A DNA stretch of 64,000 bases from Pedobacter sp. (GTDB lineage Bacteria; Bacteroidota; Bacteroidia; Sphingobacteriales; Sphingobacteriaceae): the NCBI GenBank assembly GCA_036677005.1, contig JAKFBV010000069.1, positions 3,147 through 67,146 on the forward strand. Reading direction: 5' to 3'. The notes under the pieces were generated by a model. That model did not search any database. It was not told where the DNA came from and was given only the letters and a program-made list of their open reading frames with translations. This document shows, piece after piece, positions 2,008-63,995 of this stretch (position 1 is its first letter; every line of letters starts with the position of its first letter). The translations under genes and the position numbers were made by a program.

Positions 2008-2126
2008 AATAAGTTTTAGGTTATAAGTAATAAGTTGTAAGTAATAAGTTTTAAGTTGGGACTACTAATTTCAAATAAAGTACTCATTACTAACAACCAG
2101 CAACCAACAACTAACAACAACCAACC
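2008..2126. repeat. in-phase heptanucleotide mosaic tract (17 heptads)
   Basis: AATAAGT TTTAGGT TATAAGT AATAAGT TGTAAGT AATAAGT TTTAAGT TGGGACT ACTAATT TCAAATA AAGTACT CATTACT AACAACC AGCAACC AACAACT AACAACA ACCAACC, read directly in one register. Confidence 0.8.
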
Positions 2127-2163
2127 AAAAAAGCCTTCCGCAAGCCGGGGGGCTTTCTTTTTT
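2127..2163 (+). terminator. intrinsic terminator after the CDGSH gene
   Basis: AAAAAAGCC...GGCTTTCTTTTTT forms a GC-containing hairpin followed by a T-run. Confidence 0.6.
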
Positions 2164-4984: not shown

Positions 4985-5626
4985 ATGAAAAGAATACTTT
5001 ACATGGCATTAATTTTAATGCCGGATTTATTGTTTGCTCAGTTCGAAGGCTCCAAACAAACCTTTGAAAGTCCCAAATTAAAATCATCGATTGCCAGCCA
5101 CAAAACGGCAGCGATCCTTCCTTTTGATGTAAAGATCACTTATCGCAAGCAGCCAAAGAATTTCAATTCTGATGCGAATAAAGATCAGGAAAAAACAATG
5201 TCGAAATCAATTCAGGCGAGTATGTACACCTTTCTTTTAAGACGGGTGGAAGATTATTCTGTTTCATTTCAGGATGTAGATAAAACTAATATCCTGCTCA
5301 AAAAGGCCGGAGTGGAAAACAAACTCGATGAATACACGAAGGATGAACTGGCAAAGATACTGGGGGTAGATGCCATCCTTGGAGGGAGATTTGAAACAGA
5401 ACAAACAAAATCAGAGGGGGCTGCGATCGCAACGGTATTGCTGACCGGAGGATTTGGAGGAAAGACAGGTACAGGGAGCTTATTTCTGACTATAAATAAT
5501 GGTTCGGATGGGGAATTGTTATGGCGGTTTTTTAAGACTATGGACGACGGGATTGGCGGCTCTACCGATGATCTGGTAGAACGGATGATGCGCAAGGTTT
5601 CCAGAAACTTCCCTTATTCAAAATAA
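4985..5626 (+). CDS. hypothetical secreted protein (possibly LpoB/CsgG-like fold)
   Basis: Signal peptide, an AILPFDV motif and a Gly-rich C-terminal half. The family assignment is a guess. Confidence 0.6.
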   Translation: MKRILYMALILMPDLLFAQFEGSKQTFESPKLKSSIASHKTAAILPFDVKITYRKQPKNFNSDANKDQEKTMSKSIQASMYTFLLRRVEDYSVSFQDVDKTNILLKKAGVENKLDEYTKDELAKILGVDAILGGRFETEQTKSEGAAIATVLLTGGFGGKTGTGSLFLTINNGSDGELLWRFFKTMDDGIGGSTDDLVERMMRKVSRNFPYSK

Positions 5627-5871
5627 GCGATTGATCCGGTGAATTTAACAGAGTTTTGAAGTACAGAATAAGGAACAAAGAACAAAGACGAATTGGTTTG
5701 AATTAATGAATCAGCAGGTCCTTGTTCTTTACTCCCTGCTCCGGGAAGGGTCTCGTTCTCTTCCAGCTTATCAATAAGTTCTGAAATCTCTTTTTTCATG
5801 AAAAAGCCGACCATCCTCCTGAGCTTTTTTAATAATTCAATAGCAGCGCTGATTTTTTCCCGGTCATTCAT
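5614..5871 (-). CDS. doubtful small ORF
   Basis: The first ~45 aa look helical and protein-like. The C-terminal half is read through a period-7 non-coding tract. Confidence 0.25.
   Translation of the reverse strand: MNDREKISAAIELLKKLRRMVGFFMKKEISELIDKLEENETLPGAGSKEQGPADSLIQTNSSLFFVPYSVLQNSVKFTGSIAYFE
5670..5746. repeat. weaker in-phase heptanucleotide tract (11 heptads)
   Basis: AAGGAAC AAAGAAC AAAGACG AATTGGT TTGAATT AATGAAT CAGCAGG TCCTTGT TCTTTAC TCCCTGC TCCGGGA. It shares the 12-mer TCCTTGTTCTTT with the 62.4-kb tract. Confidence 0.45.
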
Positions 5872-9824: not shown

Positions 9825-11885
9825 GTGAGAGGATTCATTGTTTCAGTTCTGTTTTCAGTTTTATCACTTGCAGCTTTTGCCCAGGGACGCCAGATCGAGA
9901 TCAGGTCGTCTGAACTGGTCAAAGGCTTTCAGGCCTCCGGCTTTGTCAGGATCATCCGGCCTGTATTTGCCCAGGAAGGTTCCACGCTCGCTGCCGACAG
10001 TGCTGATTTTAACCAGGCGGCCAATACTTTTGATGCTTTCGGGCATGTGGTCATCACTCAACCATCCGGAACAACCATCTATTCAGACCTTCTGAATTAT
10101 AATGGAAACAGCAAACTGGCTATTTTAACGAACAATGTAAGATTAATTGACGGGGATGCTACTTTAACCACCAATCTTTTAACCTATAATATGTCAACCC
10201 GCATCGGTACATACAATGGCGGCGGGAAGGTCGTTAACGGAGAAAATGTACTGACCAGTAAGAATGGCTATTATTTTGCCGCTTCGCGCGATGCTTATTT
10301 CAGGTATAACGTAGTACTTACCTCACCGGATGTACTGATCAAAACCGATACCTTAAGGTATAATTCAAACTCTAAAATTGCTTATTTCTATGGTCCTACC
10401 AATATTTACGGCAAGGACGATACCCTTTATACGGAGAATGGTACTTATAATACCAATACAGATCAGGCCCGTTTCGGCAAAAAGAATTTATACACCCAGG
10501 GCAGCAAATCGCTTACGGGAGACAGCCTTTTCTATGACCGCAAGGCAGGATATGGCAGGGCCATCGGAAATATAATTTTTATTGATACTGCCGAAAAGGC
10601 ATTGCTCAAAGGGGGGATTGGTTTTTATAAGAAATCTGATGAAAGTATTTTAGTGACTCTTAATCCCTATGTTGTGATCACCTCGGAATCTGATTCTGCC
10701 AAAGTGGACTCCATCTGGATGACTGCAGATACCTTATTCAGTAAGGTTGTATTTACCCGCGATCTGATTCCTTATAAAAAGGAAGAATTTGTTCCCGATG
10801 ATAAAATTGCTGTTCCGGCTGCCGGGGCAGCTGCCGGCCAGGGAGATCCGGCTGATCCTTTAAAACCGCTGACAGCAAATGTCAAAGATAAAGAGCCGGC
10901 AATCCTGGATACCATACAAATACCTGCCAGGGATAATTTGCCGGATAAGAAGATCATTCCTCCGGATAAGACCAAACTGCCTGTAACAGCAGATACGGTA
11001 TCTGCAAAAAAGCTCAAAAGAGCGGATCGTATTAAGGTCCGGGATACACTTTCCAAATCTATGGCTGATACGCTCAAAACAAGGGCATTGCCTGCTGATT
11101 CCGTATCGACCGATACCACAAAGGCCAGGATTGTCATTGCTTATCACCGGGCGAAAATATTCAAGTCGGATCTGCAGGCCAGGGCGGATTCCATGTTTTT
11201 CTCTTATTCTGATTCGACGGTCAGGTGTTATGTCAACCCCATGATATGGGCCCAGGGATCCCAGCTGTCAGGAGATACGGTGTATCTGCAGATGAAAAAC
11301 AAGAAACTGGATAATATGCTTCTTCAGCATAACAGTTTCATTGTAAACACGGAAGGTACCGATTCGACCAATTTTAACCAGATCAAAGGAAAGGTGATCA
11401 CCGGATATTTCCGGGATAATAAACTGAACAGCATGTTTGTTGACGGTAATGCCGAGAGCGTTTACTATCTGAAGGAAGATACTGCATACACTGGTTTGAA
11501 CCATCTGGTAAGCGGACGATTAAAGGTTTTGCTTAAGGAAAGCAAGCTTCAAAGTATTACGGCAATACGGTCAATTGAAGCATCCATCACGCCGATGAAA
11601 GATCTGAAAGAAGAGGAGAAAGTATTAAAGGGCTTTATCTGGAAACCCAGAGACCGGCCTAAATCAAAGGAGGAGATCATTCCGCAGCTGGCAAAATTGG
11701 AGAACAAGCCTGCCGCAGCGAAGAAAACCCAAACAAAGGGTCCTGTAAAAACTCCTGTAAAGACTCCTGTGAAAACCCCAGCAAAGACACCAGCCAGGGA
11801 AGGGGCAAAGGAACAAGTCAAAGATCAGCCTGAACCTGCTCCCAAAACGGAGACTAAGCAGTTATTGCGTAAGAAGCAGACTTAA
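9825..11885 (+). CDS. OstA/LptD-like large secreted protein with a Lys/Pro-rich C-terminal tail
   Basis: Signal peptide, repeated beta-rich OstA-like segments and a C-terminal KTPVKTPVKTPAKTP repeat. The product name is tentative. Confidence 0.75.
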   Translation: MRGFIVSVLFSVLSLAAFAQGRQIEIRSSELVKGFQASGFVRIIRPVFAQEGSTLAADSADFNQAANTFDAFGHVVITQPSGTTIYSDLLNYNGNSKLAILTNNVRLIDGDATLTTNLLTYNMSTRIGTYNGGGKVVNGENVLTSKNGYYFAASRDAYFRYNVVLTSPDVLIKTDTLRYNSNSKIAYFYGPTNIYGKDDTLYTENGTYNTNTDQARFGKKNLYTQGSKSLTGDSLFYDRKAGYGRAIGNIIFIDTAEKALLKGGIGFYKKSDESILVTLNPYVVITSESDSAKVDSIWMTADTLFSKVVFTRDLIPYKKEEFVPDDKIAVPAAGAAAGQGDPADPLKPLTANVKDKEPAILDTIQIPARDNLPDKKIIPPDKTKLPVTADTVSAKKLKRADRIKVRDTLSKSMADTLKTRALPADSVSTDTTKARIVIAYHRAKIFKSDLQARADSMFFSYSDSTVRCYVNPMIWAQGSQLSGDTVYLQMKNKKLDNMLLQHNSFIVNTEGTDSTNFNQIKGKVITGYFRDNKLNSMFVDGNAESVYYLKEDTAYTGLNHLVSGRLKVLLKESKLQSITAIRSIEASITPMKDLKEEEKVLKGFIWKPRDRPKSKEEIIPQLAKLENKPAAAKKTQTKGPVKTPVKTPVKTPAKTPAREGAKEQVKDQPEPAPKTETKQLLRKKQT

Positions 11886-14814: not shown

Positions 14815-15780
14815 ATGAAAACCTACAGTACTGATGTGGAGGCCGTTGATGCTTTGCACCTGTCATATAAAATGATAAGGGAGGAAATTGCACAGATCAT
14901 CGTCGGCCAGGATGACGTAGTAAAATCAGTGCTTATTTCAATTTTCAGTAATGGTCATTGCCTGCTGGTAGGTGTACCGGGATTAGCAAAAACATTGCTG
15001 GTTCAAACCGTTGCACAGGTTCTGGATCTGAGCTATAACCGGATTCAGTTTACGCCCGATCTGATGCCTTCGGATATTATCGGATCGGAAATTCTTGGAG
15101 AGGACCGGACATTTAAATTTATCCGCGGACCGGTATTCTCAAATATTATCCTGGCCGATGAAATCAACCGGACCCCGCCGAAAACCCAGGCTGCCCTCTT
15201 AGAGGCCATGCAGGAAAAAATGGTTACAGTTGGCGGACAGACCCATCACCTGCCAAAACCATTTTTCGTACTGGCTACACAAAATCCTATTGAACAGGAA
15301 GGCACTTATCCCTTACCTGAAGCACAGCTTGACCGTTTTATGTTCAATGTCTTCCTGACCTATCCATCATTCGAAGAAGAGCTGCAGGTGGTTAGAAATA
15401 CTACTGCCAATCGTAGTGTAGAACTGAAGAAAATATTGAATGCTGCTGAGATCAGCTACTTTCAGCAGCTTGTGAGAAATATACCTATTACAGATAATGT
15501 TCTTGAATATGCCGTTTCACTGGCAGCTAAGACACGTCCCGGCACCGCATCCGCAACAGATGAGGTAAATAAGTTTTTAAGCTGGGGAGCCGGGCCGAGG
15601 GCATCCCAGTTTCTAGTGCTCGGTGCAAAGTGTCATGCAGCGATCTCTGGTAAATACTCCCCGGATAAGGAAGATGTTCAGGCAGTGGCCGAATCCATTT
15701 TAAGGCACCGGATCGTGCGGAATTATAAAGCTGAAGCAGAAGGAATAAGCACAGAAAAACTGATCAGTAACCTGCTTTAA
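14815..15780 (+). CDS. MoxR-family AAA+ ATPase
   Basis: GVPGLAKT (Walker A), ILADEINR (Walker B) and the rest of the sequence is MoxR-like. Start taken at MKTYST. Confidence 0.92.
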   Translation: MKTYSTDVEAVDALHLSYKMIREEIAQIIVGQDDVVKSVLISIFSNGHCLLVGVPGLAKTLLVQTVAQVLDLSYNRIQFTPDLMPSDIIGSEILGEDRTFKFIRGPVFSNIILADEINRTPPKTQAALLEAMQEKMVTVGGQTHHLPKPFFVLATQNPIEQEGTYPLPEAQLDRFMFNVFLTYPSFEEELQVVRNTTANRSVELKKILNAAEISYFQQLVRNIPITDNVLEYAVSLAAKTRPGTASATDEVNKFLSWGAGPRASQFLVLGAKCHAAISGKYSPDKEDVQAVAESILRHRIVRNYKAEAEGISTEKLISNLL

Positions 15781-16091
15781 TCAATAACTGTAATATTTGA
15801 AAGGAATGCTGATTTGTGCTCGTCTGAGTATGCGCCATAGGCATCTATGATGATTCCTTTATGCCCTTTATTACTCTCAATGGCATAGATCACAGAATTG
15901 TCTTCCGGATCGCTCATACCTTCAAACCTGTAATATTCTGTGATCTTAAGATCGCTTGCCTGAAATTTTTCGCTTATTTTTTCACAAAAAAGGCATGCAT
16001 TCTCATAATTAAAATCATAAATATATCCCCTGTTCCGCAAACCATTTACTGCTTCAAGAAGATTTTGGTAATTGTGTGGACTCGCGCTCAT
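15777..16091 (-). CDS. conserved hypothetical 104-aa protein
   Basis: Clean ORF that converges on the MoxR gene with a shared TTAA stop overlap. Confidence 0.6.
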   Translation of the reverse strand: MSASPHNYQNLLEAVNGLRNRGYIYDFNYENACLFCEKISEKFQASDLKITEYYRFEGMSDPEDNSVIYAIESNKGHKGIIIDAYGAYSDEHKSAFLSNITVID

Positions 16092-16105
16092 GGCTGTAGT
16101 AGGTT

Positions 16106-16238
16106 TAGTTATCAGTTATCAGTTATCGGTTGTCAGTTATCAGTTATCAGTTATCAGTTGTCAGTTGTCAGTTGTCAGTTGTCAGACCTCAGACCTCAAT
16201 ACTCAATACTCAATACTCAATACTCAATACTCAGTTTG
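16106..16238. repeat. in-phase heptanucleotide mosaic tract (19 heptads, 4 blocks)
   Basis: TAGTTAT, CAGTTAT x2, CGGTTGT, CAGTTAT x3, CAGTTGT x4, CAGACCT x2, CAATACT x5, CAGTTTG. Counted base by base with the register unbroken. Confidence 0.95.
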
Positions 16239-16289
16239 AACAAGTAAATTTACTAAAAAGTACTATGTTCTGCTAACGACCAGCAAGCA

Positions 16290-17162
16290 TCAAAAGATTT
16301 TTGCGGGAGAAAATATCTCAAGTATCACATTCCATTTAAATCCTTCCTGTGATTCCCAGATCCTGACATAATTGTAGGCAGAGCTGACATTATTTTTGGT
16401 GATATGCGCCGTTCCATAGGTGTAGGCCAGATCGCTTCCTAAAGCCCTGTTTGCTTGAACCGGCTCGGTAATAATGCTCAGTTCATGCTCATTGCGGAAA
16501 TTACTGATGTTGGCCTTCCCAATAATGGGTTCATATCCGGGGAAAAGTAAGCGGGCTTCATTCGCCGTGAATACCTCATAGGCCGTATCCTGGTTTTTTC
16601 TGAGGGTATTTGAAAACAACTGGTCGGTGGTCATGATCATATCTTCCCTTTGCTTTAACCTGGCAGGGGATAATTGCTGGAAGAATTTAAAGTTCCTGGG
16701 ATCTTTAAAATTCAATTCTGGTTTTTGCTGCGGTTTGGGATGCGAAATTCCCAGATCCAAAGCTAATTTCCATACCCCTTTTTTATTAGCCCGCCAGACA
16801 GACAGGTATTGCCCGAATGTTGGGACTGCATTTTCGGGGGCAGTATGGGTATATGGACCGGTAGTAAAACCCCAGTCGCCGCTTCGGGATAATCTGGCAT
16901 AAGCAGGCTCCCAGCTTAGTCCGCCCTGATCTTCAGACTTTTTATCAAAGAATTCTTCAGCTTTTACCGGGTTGGGTCTGAAAAGCAGTGTTTCGCTGTC
17001 TGAAACTTTTAAAAAAGCCTCTCTGATCCCTTTCTCCTTTGCAAAAGCTGCAAAATAATTTTCTGCGGCAAGCAGGGAATTCATTCTGCCGTTGCTGGCC
17101 TGACCGAAACTATTACATGCGAATGCGAATACTATGCTAAGCGGTAAAAAAAAATGCTTCAT
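16290..17162 (-). CDS. hypothetical secreted protein
   Basis: Start set at MKHFFLPLSIVFAFA (signal peptide) rather than the upstream Met at 17240. Confidence 0.7.
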   Translation of the reverse strand: MKHFFLPLSIVFAFACNSFGQASNGRMNSLLAAENYFAAFAKEKGIREAFLKVSDSETLLFRPNPVKAEEFFDKKSEDQGGLSWEPAYARLSRSGDWGFTTGPYTHTAPENAVPTFGQYLSVWRANKKGVWKLALDLGISHPKPQQKPELNFKDPRNFKFFQQLSPARLKQREDMIMTTDQLFSNTLRKNQDTAYEVFTANEARLLFPGYEPIIGKANISNFRNEHELSIITEPVQANRALGSDLAYTYGTAHITKNNVSSAYNYVRIWESQEGFKWNVILEIFSPAKIF

Positions 17163-17285
17163 TTTAAATCTGCTGAATTTCTGAATATTATACATGAATG
17201 ATGCCATAATTATATAAGATTCTTCACTTATAGCCACCATATTCGTATATTTAATTAACTACCAAAAATAATTCCGGAATTTTAA

Positions 17286-59390: not shown

Positions 59391-59483
<93 letters not shown>

Positions 59484-61286: not shown

Positions 61287-62336
61287 ATGTCAAACGAGTA
61301 TATATTTTTCGGCAGTTTCCTGCTTTTTATTATTCTGATGCTGGCTATTGACCTGGGACTTTTTAACAAAAGGGAACATAAGGTCAGTATGAAAGAGGCT
61401 GCCATCATGAGTTTTATATGGGTCAGTTTTGCCATCGGATTTTACTTTTTATTGCTGACGGAGGGCGAAATACTGCATGGGATCAGCAATTTCGCCCAGC
61501 TTCAGGAAGCTACCATCCAGAATTTTCATAATATCACACTCATTCCGGGTAATTATGCCGAAAGCCTTTCGCTCTATAAGCAGAACCTCGCCCTTGAATT
61601 CCTTACCGGTTATGTCATTGAATATGCACTTTCAGTTGATAATATCTTTGTCATGGTCCTGATTTTTTCAGCATTTGGCGTGGATGAAAAGTACTATCAC
61701 CGGGTTTTGTTCTGGGGTATTATCGGTGCGGTGATGATGCGCTTTCTTTTTATTTTCCTGGGCTCTACCTTAATTAATGAGTTCGGCTGGATCCTTTATA
61801 TTTTCGGGGCATTCCTGGTTTACACCGGGATCACGATGTTCATGAGCCGTGATGAGGAAGAAAAGATCGATACCGAGAACCATAAGGTGGTCCTTTTTGC
61901 ATCCAGGTACTTTTCAGTTTATCCTGAATATGCGGGTAAAAAGTTCTTTATTAAGGTGGATGGGAAAAAAATGGTAACCCCGCTTTTCATTGTCCTTCTT
62001 ATCGTAGAATTTACCGATCTTATTTTTGCGGTTGATTCAATTCCGGCGATCTTTGCCGTGACCAAAGACCCCTACATTGTGTTTTTCTCGAATATATTCG
62101 CCATTCTGGGTTTACGTTCGATGTTTTTTCTGCTGGTGAACGTTATTCATAAATTCCATTACCTCAAAACAGGCTTATCCTTTCTGCTGCTATTCATCGG
62201 ACTTAAAATGCTGGCGCACCACTGGCTGACCCTATGGGGTTTTACCACCATGCATTCCCTGTTCATCATTCTGTTCATTCTTACCGCAAGTATTGTGGCA
62301 TCGCTTATGTTCCCGAAAAAGGGGAGCAAGGAATAA
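61287..62336 (+). CDS. TerC-family integral membrane protein
   Basis: EYALSVDNIFV and EFTDLIFAVDSIPA are TerC repeats. The ATG lies 1 nt after the upstream stop. Confidence 0.9.
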   Translation: MSNEYIFFGSFLLFIILMLAIDLGLFNKREHKVSMKEAAIMSFIWVSFAIGFYFLLLTEGEILHGISNFAQLQEATIQNFHNITLIPGNYAESLSLYKQNLALEFLTGYVIEYALSVDNIFVMVLIFSAFGVDEKYYHRVLFWGIIGAVMMRFLFIFLGSTLINEFGWILYIFGAFLVYTGITMFMSRDEEEKIDTENHKVVLFASRYFSVYPEYAGKKFFIKVDGKKMVTPLFIVLLIVEFTDLIFAVDSIPAIFAVTKDPYIVFFSNIFAILGLRSMFFLLVNVIHKFHYLKTGLSFLLLFIGLKMLAHHWLTLWGFTTMHSLFIILFILTASIVASLMFPKKGSKE

Positions 62337-62340
62337 GGAT

Positions 62341-62519
62341 TTACTCTTATCTGTTATCAGTTGTCTGTTACCTGTTGTCTGTTAGCTGTTGTCAGTAAAT
62401 TGTGCTGAATGTCAATGGGGTAGCTTATGTCTTTAATCTTTGCTCCTTGTTCTTTGCTCATAAATCTCCAATGAACCAAAATTTAATCCTGATACCTGAT
62501 ACCTGATACCTGATTCTTA
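62341..62519. repeat. in-phase heptanucleotide mosaic tract (about 25 heptads) filling a convergent intergenic gap
   Basis: TTACTCT TATCTGT TATCAGT TGTCTGT TACCTGT TGTCTGT TAGCTGT TGTCAGT ... TTATGTC TTTAATC TTTGCTC CTTGTTC TTTGCTC ATAAATC ... CCTGATA x3 CCTGATT, all in one register. Confidence 0.85.
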
Positions 62520-63995
62520 TTACAGCAATTTCAGGATCTCATCCACATACGCCCGGTCATTGGCAAGGCGGGGAACTTTATGCTGCCCGCCAAGTTTCCC
62601 CCTGGTTTTCATCCAGTGGTAGAATGTTCCATCCGGTGCTGCATGTATCAGTGGGCGGCGTAATGCCATGTCTTTATAACGTTTGGCATCATAATCTGAA
62701 TTTATTTCTCTTAAGGTTTGGTCGAGCAGATCGGTGAAGCGTTCCATATCATCAGGTTTTTGATCAAACTCGATGATCCACTCATGTCCGCCGGCATCAT
62801 TACCCTTAAAATAGATCGGGCAGGCGGTATAATCACGGATAATGGCATGGGTCTCCAGGCAGGCTTTTGCCAGGCCTTTTTCAGCATTGTCAATGATCAG
62901 CTCCTCGCCAAAAGCATTGATAAAATGTTTGGTGCGGCCTGTGATCTGAATTCGATGCGGCGAGAGTGAAGTGAATTTGATGGTATCGCCGATCATGTAC
63001 CTCCATAATCCGGCATTGGTTGAAATGATCAGGGCATAATTCTTATTAAGCTGCACCTCATCCAGGCCCAGGGTTTTCGGATTTTCTGCATGCAGATGCT
63101 CCATGGGAAGGAACTCATAATAGATCCCATAATCGAGCATGAGCAGCATCTCTTCCGAATTGGACTGGTCCTGAATACCGAAAAATCCTTCTGAGGCATT
63201 ATAAGTTTCCAGATAATACATATTATCTGAAGGAATGAGTTTTTTAAACTGCTCCCGGTAGGGGTTGAAATTAACGGCCCCGTGGAAATAGAATTCCAGG
63301 TTAGGCCATACTTCCAGTAAATTATCCTTGCCTGTTATTTCCAATATTCGTTTCGCCAGTACTAAATTCCAGGTGGGTACACCCGAAATATTGGTGACGT
63401 TTACTTCAATCGTTGCCCTGGCCATTTTTTCGACCTTTTCCTCAAAATTATCCATCAGGGCGATCGACATTTCAGGTGTGCGATAGAATTCAGCCCAGAA
63501 GGGTAAATTCTTGATCAGTACGGCAGACAGGTCGCCGCAATAGGAATCTGTATTCAGCTGGTTGATCTCGTGGCTTCCGCCCAATACAAGGCATTTTCCA
63601 GTAAATATCCTGGTATCGGGACGATTATTACAATACATTGATAAGAGATCTTTACCGCCCTTAAAATGACATTCTTCCAATGATTCCTCACTTACCGGAA
63701 TGAATTTGCTCCGGTCATTGGTAGTTCCCGATGATTTGGCAAACCATTTTATCTCTGAAGGCCAGAGTACATTTTGTTCACCATTGAGCATTTTTTCAAT
63801 GAATGGCTTCAGGCTGTCATAATTCTGGATCGGCACCTTTTCTTTGAACTGATCCTGACTATAGATTGAAGAATAGCCGTGTAATTTGCCCCATTCTGTA
63901 TGCTGGGCGGTGGATATCAGGGTCTGGAACCATTCTTCCTGTACATCATAGGGGTATTTAATGAAAAGCTCGATCTGATGCATCCGCTTTTTCAT
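62520..63995 (-). CDS. GH3 (auxin-responsive promoter) family acyl-adenylate-forming protein
   Basis: Length and motifs (FAKSSGTT, YNASEGFFG) are typical of bacterial GH3 proteins. The true start may lie beyond the window edge. Confidence 0.85.
   Translation of the reverse strand: MKKRMHQIELFIKYPYDVQEEWFQTLISTAQHTEWGKLHGYSSIYSQDQFKEKVPIQNYDSLKPFIEKMLNGEQNVLWPSEIKWFAKSSGTTNDRSKFIPVSEESLEECHFKGGKDLLSMYCNNRPDTRIFTGKCLVLGGSHEINQLNTDSYCGDLSAVLIKNLPFWAEFYRTPEMSIALMDNFEEKVEKMARATIEVNVTNISGVPTWNLVLAKRILEITGKDNLLEVWPNLEFYFHGAVNFNPYREQFKKLIPSDNMYYLETYNASEGFFGIQDQSNSEEMLLMLDYGIYYEFLPMEHLHAENPKTLGLDEVQLNKNYALIISTNAGLWRYMIGDTIKFTSLSPHRIQITGRTKHFINAFGEELIIDNAEKGLAKACLETHAIIRDYTACPIYFKGNDAGGHEWIIEFDQKPDDMERFTDLLDQTLREINSDYDAKRYKDMALRRPLIHAAPDGTFYHWMKTRGKLGGQHKVPRLANDRAYVDEILKLL

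Follow-up and report, generated by a model that had tools for sequence, protein, structure and literature searches.

A mixed, in-register heptamer array of the TAACTGA direct-repeat class lies before a small conserved gene and differs by whole units between near-identical strains

The window, i.e., the whole 64-kb stretch of Pedobacter sp. contig JAKFBV010000069.1 (assembly GCA_036677005.1) that was analyzed, carries at positions 16106 to 16238 a heptamer array of 133 nucleotides (nt), corresponding to 19 units in a single 7-nt register throughout. The array lies between two genes that are both on the minus strand, a gene of 316 amino acids (aa) upstream and a gene of 104 aa downstream (Table 1). 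Counted base by base, the plus strand reads TAGTTAT, CAGTTAT x2, CGGTTGT, CAGTTAT x3, CAGTTGT x4, CAGACCT x2, CAATACT x5, and CAGTTTG. A preliminary description of the same DNA had given this reading and its unbroken register, and both proved exact upon recounting and analysis with Tandem Repeats Finder (TRF), which reported period 7 at 16107-16185 (11.3 copies, 93% matches), 16182-16198, and 16195-16233 (100%); TRF scores for period-7 arrays were 116 to 130. The intergenic, same-strand placement given in that description also stood, but its distances of 52 nt from the upstream stop codon and 15 nt to the downstream start codon were each off by one, the correct values being 51 and 14 nt. On the strand of the flanking genes, the array reads CAAACTG (AGTATTG)5 (AGGTCTG)2 (ACAACTG)4 (ATAACTG)3 ACAACCG (ATAACTG)2 ATAACTA.

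The heptamers had been regarded as unrelated to each other, which does not hold for the minus strand, where the units have the common skeleton A-N-N-A-Y-T-G. A occupies position 1 in 18 of the 19 units and position 4 in 17, all 19 have C or T at position 5, and positions 6 and 7 are T and G, respectively, in 18 units each. The units are therefore related, with four near-invariant positions and a fifth that is always a pyrimidine. TGA occurs at nearly every unit junction on the minus strand of the array, which contains 23 stop codons compared to a single one on the plus strand (1, 0, and 0 by frame). The base content of the sense strand amounts to 21 C versus 27 G; G and T predominate in the distal third (AGTATTG, AGGTCTG), and the half nearest the ATG is A/C-rich.

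Table 1. Coordinates of the heptamer arrays, their units, and neighboring features in the 64-kb window
Feature	Position	Strand	Remarks
316-aa gene, DUF4440	16290..17240	minus	TGA stop 16290-16292, 51 nt before array
104-aa gene	15777..16091	minus	ATG 16091-16089, 14 nt from array
Unique spacer AACCTACTACAGCC, 14 nt, array to ATG	16092..16105	minus	Identical in all strain alleles
CAAACTG	16232-16238	minus	
(AGTATTG)5	16197-16231	minus	
(AGGTCTG)2	16183-16196	minus	
(ACAACTG)4	16155-16182	minus	
(ATAACTG)3	16134-16154	minus	
ACAACCG	16127-16133	minus	
(ATAACTG)2	16113-16126	minus	
ATAACTA	16106-16112	minus	
(TAACTGA)3	16133-16153	minus	
(TAACTGA)2	16112-16125	minus	
Candidate -7 box TACTTTTT	16262-16255	minus	7/8 match, TAnnTTTG scan
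Candidate -7 box TAAATTTA	16252-16245	minus	7/8 match, TAnnTTTG scan
Spurious open reading frame (ORF), 128 aa	15861..16247	plus	Antisense to 104-aa gene; array read as SYQLSVI-type repeat
Degenerate heptamer array AAGTTTT/AGGTTAT/AAGTAAT/AAGTTGT	2008..2059	plus	Begins 2 nt past CDGSH gene stop
Heptamer array ACTAACA/ACCAGCA/ACCAACA/ACAACCA	2079..2132	plus	Imperfect inverted partner of 2008-2059
GGARYAA mini-array	62323..62339	plus	Overlaps last codons and stop of TerC gene
CWGTTRY array	62340..62391	plus	Adjoins GGARYAA mini-array
(CCTGATA)4 array	62476..62526	plus	Abuts stop of convergent GH3 gene; partly complementary to 62349-62370

Ten contigs were found to encode an identical 104-aa protein, six of which span the spacer and four of which end inside the array; a metagenome-assembled genome (MAG) of the same species is GCA_964371635.1. 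Together, the window and the six spanning contigs carry three spacer alleles, which differ by whole heptamers only. The window allele comprises 19 units, with AGGTCTG present twice and ACAACTG four times. A second allele of 19 units, found in two contigs whose flanks are 99.8-99.9% identical (L005 and L008), has AGGTCTG increased from two to three copies and ACAACTG decreased from four to three, and the block boundary is shifted. The third allele, carried by four contigs with 97.5-98.6% identity to the window (L001, L002, L003, and L009), comprises 16 units, with seven AGTATTG, one AGGTCTG, and alternating ACAACTG and ATAACTG. Outside the array, the spacer hardly varies among the alleles; the 14 nt next to the ATG and the 51 nt that follow the stop codon show one substitution, in L002. 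The tract is a single in-register family of related units that undergoes whole-unit gain, loss, and homogenization between near-identical strains. Contig ends inside arrays, of which three further cases occur at 2008-2132, are expected because the DNA there is repetitive and polymorphic.

Variation of the same kind was seen in the spacer between the TerC and GH3 genes, which was compared with that of a 96.8%-identical strain located through the neighboring polyprenyl synthase gene. In that strain, the GGARYAA mini-array is longer and the CWGTTRY array shorter, each by 14 nt, and the CCTGATA array has one unit more (+7 nt) plus a 1-nt deletion; a separate 6-nt indel at this locus lies in unique sequence outside the arrays. 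The comparison of intergenic regions between strains that had been proposed earlier thus revealed unit-number polymorphism (19 versus 16 units), and the suggestion of a length-variable spacer was borne out as far as variation is concerned, by three whole-unit alleles at the main locus and by changes of +14, -14, and +7 nt at the second one.

Lag-k self-match scans of the window showed that the only enriched repeat periods are 7 and its multiple 14, with five period-7 segments compared to none or one for each other lag from 4 to 13. Block shuffles yielded 0.0 period-7 segments versus 3 to 5 observed. Five arrays are distributed over three spacers, a density of about 5 per 64 kb. The comparison set, fetched via the neighboring MoxR gene, consisted of loci totaling 1.38 Mb from 80 further species, the majority of them Bacteroidota; it contained 0.6 period-7 tracts per 64 kb, no more than tracts of periods 6, 8, and 9. 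Since these loci show no period-7 excess, the enrichment is specific to the lineage of the window. A start-proximal array is present at 1 of the 53 genes in the window, and the remaining arrays, of either orientation, follow stop codons or separate convergent genes.

All 11 of the closest orthologous loci (80-88% protein identity) carry a sense-strand A/C-rich and usually G-poor array directly before the ATG, with unit types that include CTAACCA, ACAACTG, GAGAACT, CAACTGT, ACTTACA, and ACGTATA. None of the seven more distant orthologues (67-80% protein identity), syntenic ones included, has an array. Not every array in the clade keeps strictly to a 7-nt register, since units of 8 nt, CTAACCAA, and of 7 nt, CTAACCC, occur together in the one at about 2120-2197 of L092. 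The presence of TGA in every frame was also considered as a conserved feature and was rejected, since several orthologous arrays (CTTACAA, CAACTGT) are devoid of stop codons.

Relatives of the 104-aa protein were found in 45 cases in metagenome contigs, with 40-89% identity (one of them a 27-residue fragment). The 17 relatives that were fully examined are 104 to 105 aa long, and most of the closer ones keep the upstream neighbor. Judging from these sequences, the 104-aa gene is real and conserved, and sequence searches of Pfam, NCBIfam, and PDB gave no match for its product. Twelve of 14 neighboring genes are syntenic with those of Mucilaginibacter straminoryzae (32-75% aa identity), and this Mucilaginibacter-like gene order, along with the TAnnTTTG box enrichment described below, indicates that the host belongs to the Bacteroidota, with synteny pointing to an uncultured, Sphingobacteriaceae-like lineage. 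The best match to MoxR (76%) came from a Saprospiraceae MAG and was misleading as to affiliation. The plus-strand ORF at 15861-16247 had been called an artefact, and indeed it is antisense to the conserved 104-aa gene, across which it extends. The sole reason that it is uninterrupted is that the array contributes a single plus-strand stop codon, which is out of its frame. Reverse-read TAACTGA repeats are known to translate as an LSVISYQ-type repeat (MacGregor 2015, PMC4679880), as does this ORF. Heptamer arrays create spurious ORFs such as 15861-16247 and break short-read assemblies. As separate observations, the 3′ end of the 104-aa gene shares 4 nt (15777-15780) with the convergent MoxR gene, and the 104-aa gene is absent from a syntenic Mucilaginibacter locus (L012).

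A sigma-70 promoter scan, which is uninformative for Bacteroidota, gave no hit in the spacer and was replaced by a scan for TAnnTTTG, the -7 box. On the sense strand within 150 nt of the starts of 53 ORFs, 19 such boxes were found versus 3.4 expected, and most of them are located 4 to 42 nt from the ATG, which suggests short leaders for most genes of the window. The sole near-matches in the spacer are TACTTTTT and TAAATTTA, both upstream of the array, and the same scan found no near-match inside the array or between the array and the ATG. The same TAAATTTA box is found 16 to 21 nt before the ATG in array-free orthologues (L106-L108), and a perfect TAAATTTG is found upstream of a short array in another orthologue (L093). 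With these near-matches as the promoter, the whole array would be included in the 5′ leader of the 104-aa gene. Given the position of the near-matches upstream of the array and the lack of a terminator between the two genes, the array is predicted to be transcribed in the ACAACUG sense. It would most likely make up the greater part of a 5′ leader about 150 nt long or, alternatively, an intercistronic spacer. The implied leader of about 150 nt contrasts with the short leaders of most genes in the window.

Compared to shuffled sequence, the predicted fold of the spacer has no excess stability (z = -0.22), and its minimum free energy (MFE) structure leaves ACAACUG/AUAACUG unpaired. Likewise, the folds of the TerC-GH3 and CDGSH spacers are not significant (z = -1.0 and -0.9). 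A terminator scan found no terminator-like hairpin in the spacer between the 316-aa and 104-aa genes, an inverted-repeat search found 0 inverted pairs there, and Rfam searched at the gathering threshold over the whole window matched only a tRNA at 59397-59483. The main tract consequently has no inverted partner, and a hairpin or cruciform was rejected on the same count. A structured RNA element (terminator, riboswitch, or small RNA) was also rejected, given the z score and the absence of any terminator, inverted repeat, or Rfam match in these searches. The terminator and inverted-repeat searches thereby upheld the earlier view of the tract as intergenic and free of a hairpin terminator.

The tract belongs to the already described TAACTGA direct repeat/heptanucleotide simple sequence repeat (SSR) class and is a fresh example of it, not a new type of element. 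The preliminary description knew of no described element class of this architecture, but mixed intergenic TAACTGA heptamer arrays near start codons have been reported (PMC4679880; related repeats in PMC4692102 and PMC2651432). According to MacGregor (2015, PMC4679880), TAACTGA direct repeats are abundant between the genes of Beggiatoaceae, 15 Cyanobacteria, and 5 Bacteroidetes. Most of those in Flexibacter and in the Beggiatoaceae draft genome that was analyzed closely are forward and within a few nucleotides of start codons; 12 of 14 sets in Flexibacter litoralis are so arranged, with a distance to the start of 1 to 43 nt (PMC4679880). In Microcystis, Gramella, Aequorivita, and Elizabethkingia, TAACTGA is mixed with other heptamers, and indels in the TAACTGA repeats of Cyanothece strains occur “mostly in 7 nt increments” (PMC4679880). 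No RNA structure is predicted for these repeats, and their role was proposed to be possibly translational, via S1, Csp, or CsrA (PMC4679880).

The array described here resembles the repeats of PMC4679880 in several respects. It contains tandem TAACTGA, as (TAACTGA)3 and (TAACTGA)2, it is intergenic, forward, and 14 nt before an ATG, and the TAACTGA units are embedded in register among AGTATTG, AGGTCTG, ACAACTG, and ACAACCG blocks. Strain differences likewise occur in 7-nt steps, and no RNA structure is predicted. Unlike the cases of PMC4679880, it is found in an uncultured Sphingobacteriaceae-like lineage, which the list of five Bacteroidetes there does not include, and TAACTGA units are a minority (5 to 6 of 19). 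Beyond those cases, population-level alleles and retention at orthologous loci are seen directly here.

Rehm et al. (2015, PMC4692102) reported that heptameric SSRs are specifically over-represented in the intergenic DNA of Xanthomonas and Nostoc, inverted pairs included, and that two species share them between the same genes despite extensive variation in length and sequence; these authors cite a polymerase-slippage hypothesis for the period of 7. The arrays of the window are like the Xanthomonas GGGAATC SSRs (PMC4692102) in being intergenic, in forming inverted pairs, and in being retained at the same genes with variable units, but the GGGAATC units are G-rich and G-quadruplex-forming, whereas the units here have no G-runs. 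A long simple sequence repeat (LSSR), as defined by Mrazek, Guo, and Shah (2007) and cited in PMC4679880 and PMC4692102, is an array of 5- to 11-nt units extending beyond chance; heptanucleotides are the most abundant, and polymerase slippage is offered as the explanation for period 7. The main array is longer than chance in this sense, with 0.0 period-7 segments in shuffles, and the LSSR category, as relayed by these two sources, is purely statistical and silent on block structure or position.

A precedent for the modulation of expression by unit number is the (TGAAAGA)n tract before hmw1A/hmw2A of Haemophilus influenzae (Dawid et al. 1999, as cited in PMC2651432), a species in which (AACAACC)n is also located 13 bp before a TonB-dependent receptor gene (PMC2651432). 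As with these SSRs, unit number differs between strains here; the array would also lie between promoter and start codon if the -7 near-matches upstream of it are the promoter. The H. influenzae AACAACC unit is in the same unit family as ACAACCG and ACAACCA of the window. The H. influenzae SSRs are pathogen contingency loci before surface proteins, whereas the array here precedes the gene for a small protein without recognizable family. The cyanobacterial short tandemly repeated repetitive (STRR) and Nostoc repeats are present in many intergenic regions, often near starts or promoters, and comprise several unit types per genome, and the heptamers of the window are likewise dispersed in intergenic DNA and of several types; neither the STRR host nor its canonical units are matched, as the host here is a member of the Bacteroidota and the units differ, such that the array is STRR-like without being a member. 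The original description of the cyanobacterial STRR heptamers is reportedly that of Mazel et al. in 1990. These repeats are variable enough to be used for strain fingerprinting (PMC5088731), and according to a preprint on Nostoc PCC 7120 (bioRxiv 10.1101/2022.06.06.494920), the regulation of recF and recO is affected by heptamer repeats close to start codons.

Similar arrays were also observed in contigs of the virus catalogue IMG/VR, in which exact (TAACTGA)3 was found in 107 stretches and exact (ACAACTG)3 in 33. The 140 loci fetched from it (L137-L276; GC content, 0.28-0.70) contain 348 period-7 arrays compared to 6 to 38 for periods 5, 6, 8, and 9. Mixed units, inverted pairs, and arrays abutting ATGs are all found among them (e.g., L212 3245-3429; L252 456-567 and 1700-1764; L137 3694-3795), and over 15 arrays are present in a single 42.5-kb contig with a GC content of 0.62. 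When 10 flanking ORFs were scanned against PHROGs, one weak domain match was returned, which did not establish a viral origin of the contigs. With respect to co-directional genes, 35 arrays are forward versus 125 reverse, an excess that comes from one redundant group of contigs. If these contigs are truly viral, they bear on the unexplained cross-phylum distribution noted by MacGregor.

With slightly better than even confidence, we favor the interpretation that the tract is a hypermutable heptanucleotide microsatellite, largely passive and tolerated, that is transcribed as the leader of the 104-aa gene. Slipped-strand mispairing or unequal exchange would add, remove, and homogenize units, and a new block could arise when a unit acquires a point mutation and the resulting variant is amplified locally. 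Because slippage or exchange moves whole units, i.e., multiples of 7 nt, the register would survive every block boundary. Such an array may be tolerated in the spacer because a 7-nt period cannot sit inside coding sequence, and its sense orientation would place a TGA every 7 nt. The transcribed part would be unstructured, lack a Shine-Dalgarno sequence, and be A/C-rich in the ATG-proximal half; its effect on the 104-aa gene would be at most passive or quantitative via leader length, as opposed to that of a dedicated switch, binding array, or terminator. A passive nature is favored because start-proximal placement is confined to 1 of 53 genes, with the other arrays 3′ or convergent in either orientation, and because unit sequences are unconserved and orientation appears inconsistent in the other array-rich contigs. 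Several points weigh against this interpretation. The copy numbers come from short-read assemblies, although each homogeneous block is shorter than typical k-mers and identical alleles were found again in independent samples. The recurrence of the ACAACTG/ATAACTG/ACAACCG family across GC contents of 0.28-0.70 is poorly explained by generic slippage, and the persistence of an array at 11 of 11 clade loci, in a genome that is compact, could reflect selection as opposed to tolerance.

A role of the array in tuning or translation is possible, and an alternative to which we assign appreciable but clearly smaller weight is that of a selected cis-acting leader. This unstructured leader, free of a Shine-Dalgarno sequence, would promote or set the initiation of translation of the 104-aa gene, for instance via a protein that covers about 7 nt, such as ribosomal protein S1 or one with a cold-shock domain, and unit-number changes would tune expression stepwise, as do the 7-bp repeats upstream of H. 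influenzae hmw1A/hmw2A. The position 14 nt before the ATG with TAACTGA forward, as in most Beggiatoaceae repeats and 12 of 14 F. litoralis sets, is consistent with this idea, as is the retention of a pre-ATG, sense-strand A/C-rich array in all 11 clade orthologues, but the latter represent one evolutionary origin and are not independent. Similarly, the candidate -7 boxes upstream would put the array in the mRNA with its ACAACUG/AUAACUG part unpaired, yet a leader of this kind is found at only 1 of 53 genes in the window, and other arrays of the same family are 3′ or convergent and in reverse orientation. There is experimental precedent for upstream heptamer SSRs modulating expression (PMC2651432), with hints from Nostoc recF and recO; on the other hand, the unit sequences at this locus are not conserved and the distal third of the array is G/T-rich.

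It is rather improbable that the units are phased binding sites for a sequence-specific DNA- or RNA-binding protein, repeated every 7 nt or 21 bp and serving regulation or nucleoid organization. The skeleton is constant across blocks, TGA is present at nearly every junction, YAAC is found in the ATG-proximal units of most orthologues, and the same unit family occurs in distant genomes; the authors of the Nostoc and Beggiatoaceae studies also speculated on a binding partner. Against this, the units differ between blocks, strains, and species, copy number is unconstrained, some orthologues use 8-nt units or units without TGA, and the genes next to the arrays include none for a candidate binding protein. 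We give hardly any credence to a nonhairpin, Rho-type termination or insulation element separating the transcription units of the 316-aa and 104-aa genes. No intrinsic terminator is present between these two same-strand genes, the region is unstructured, and several orthologues have ATG-proximal arrays that are rich in C and free of G, resembling Rho utilization (rut) sites, but the array in the window is only weakly biased to C over G and has 21 C versus 27 G overall. Moreover, termination right before the start codon would silence the 104-aa gene in the absence of a later promoter, no -7 box follows the array, and the array at 2079-2132 itself has a normal hairpin terminator after it.

An unlikely, wider proposal is that ACAACTG/TAACTGA arrays are a selected, cross-phylum cis element, i.e., an unstructured 7-nt-periodic platform offering one YAAC per unit, read by an OB-fold RNA-binding protein of the S1 or cold-shock type that covers about 7 nt, driving or setting translation independent of Shine-Dalgarno sequences, and spreading horizontally. 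If true, this proposal would explain the clade-wide retention of an array before the ATG despite unit turnover, as well as the presence of the unit family in Beggiatoaceae, Cyanobacteria, Bacteroidota, and virus-catalogue contigs with GC contents of 0.28-0.70, and these contigs could be the missing vehicle of horizontal spread. Heptamer arrays have been known since the STRR work, and period 7 and a few unit families recur across distant phyla. With its whole-unit alleles, clade retention with unit turnover, and array-free outgroups, the present locus is a natural experiment and could serve as a test case for whether such arrays tune translation in bacteria without Shine-Dalgarno sequences.

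Two of the three further tracts listed in the preliminary description, 2008-2126 and 62341-62519, are real, and each consists of two arrays; the third, 5670-5746, is not a heptamer tract. For the latter, TRF gave only 3.4 copies with a score of 34, and the tract was rejected in favor of an imperfect inverted repeat of 18 nt (5672-5689/5718-5735, 83% complementary, 28-nt loop), which is located downstream of a gene ending at 5626 and may be a terminator-like hairpin. The array at 2079-2132 directly precedes an intrinsic-terminator hairpin at about 2130-2165. At the TerC-GH3 spacer, the 14-nt difference in the GGARYAA mini-array (window 62323-62339 versus L280 2895-2935) alters the C terminus of TerC, …KKGSKE-stop versus …KKGNKE-stop.

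Inverted arrangements are also found in the clade, as four orthologous loci (L097, L101, L102, and L103) carry an inverted partner array just after the upstream stop codon. One of them, L101 (621-695), has a tight inverted array pair between convergent genes, and heptamer-built hairpins are also present in a Saprospiraceae MAG and in Spirosoma. Such inverted heptamer-array pairs, also seen at L014 2938-2990 and L041 9908-9989, would form long all-repeat hairpins, some of them between convergent genes like bidirectional terminators, and the pairs at 2008-2132 and 62340-62526 of the window are degenerate versions of this arrangement. Finally, a tandem repeat of period 12/24, TCCTGTAAAAAC, is present in three copies at 11723-11788, near the 3′ end of a 686-aa ORF (9825-11885), and is presumably coding.

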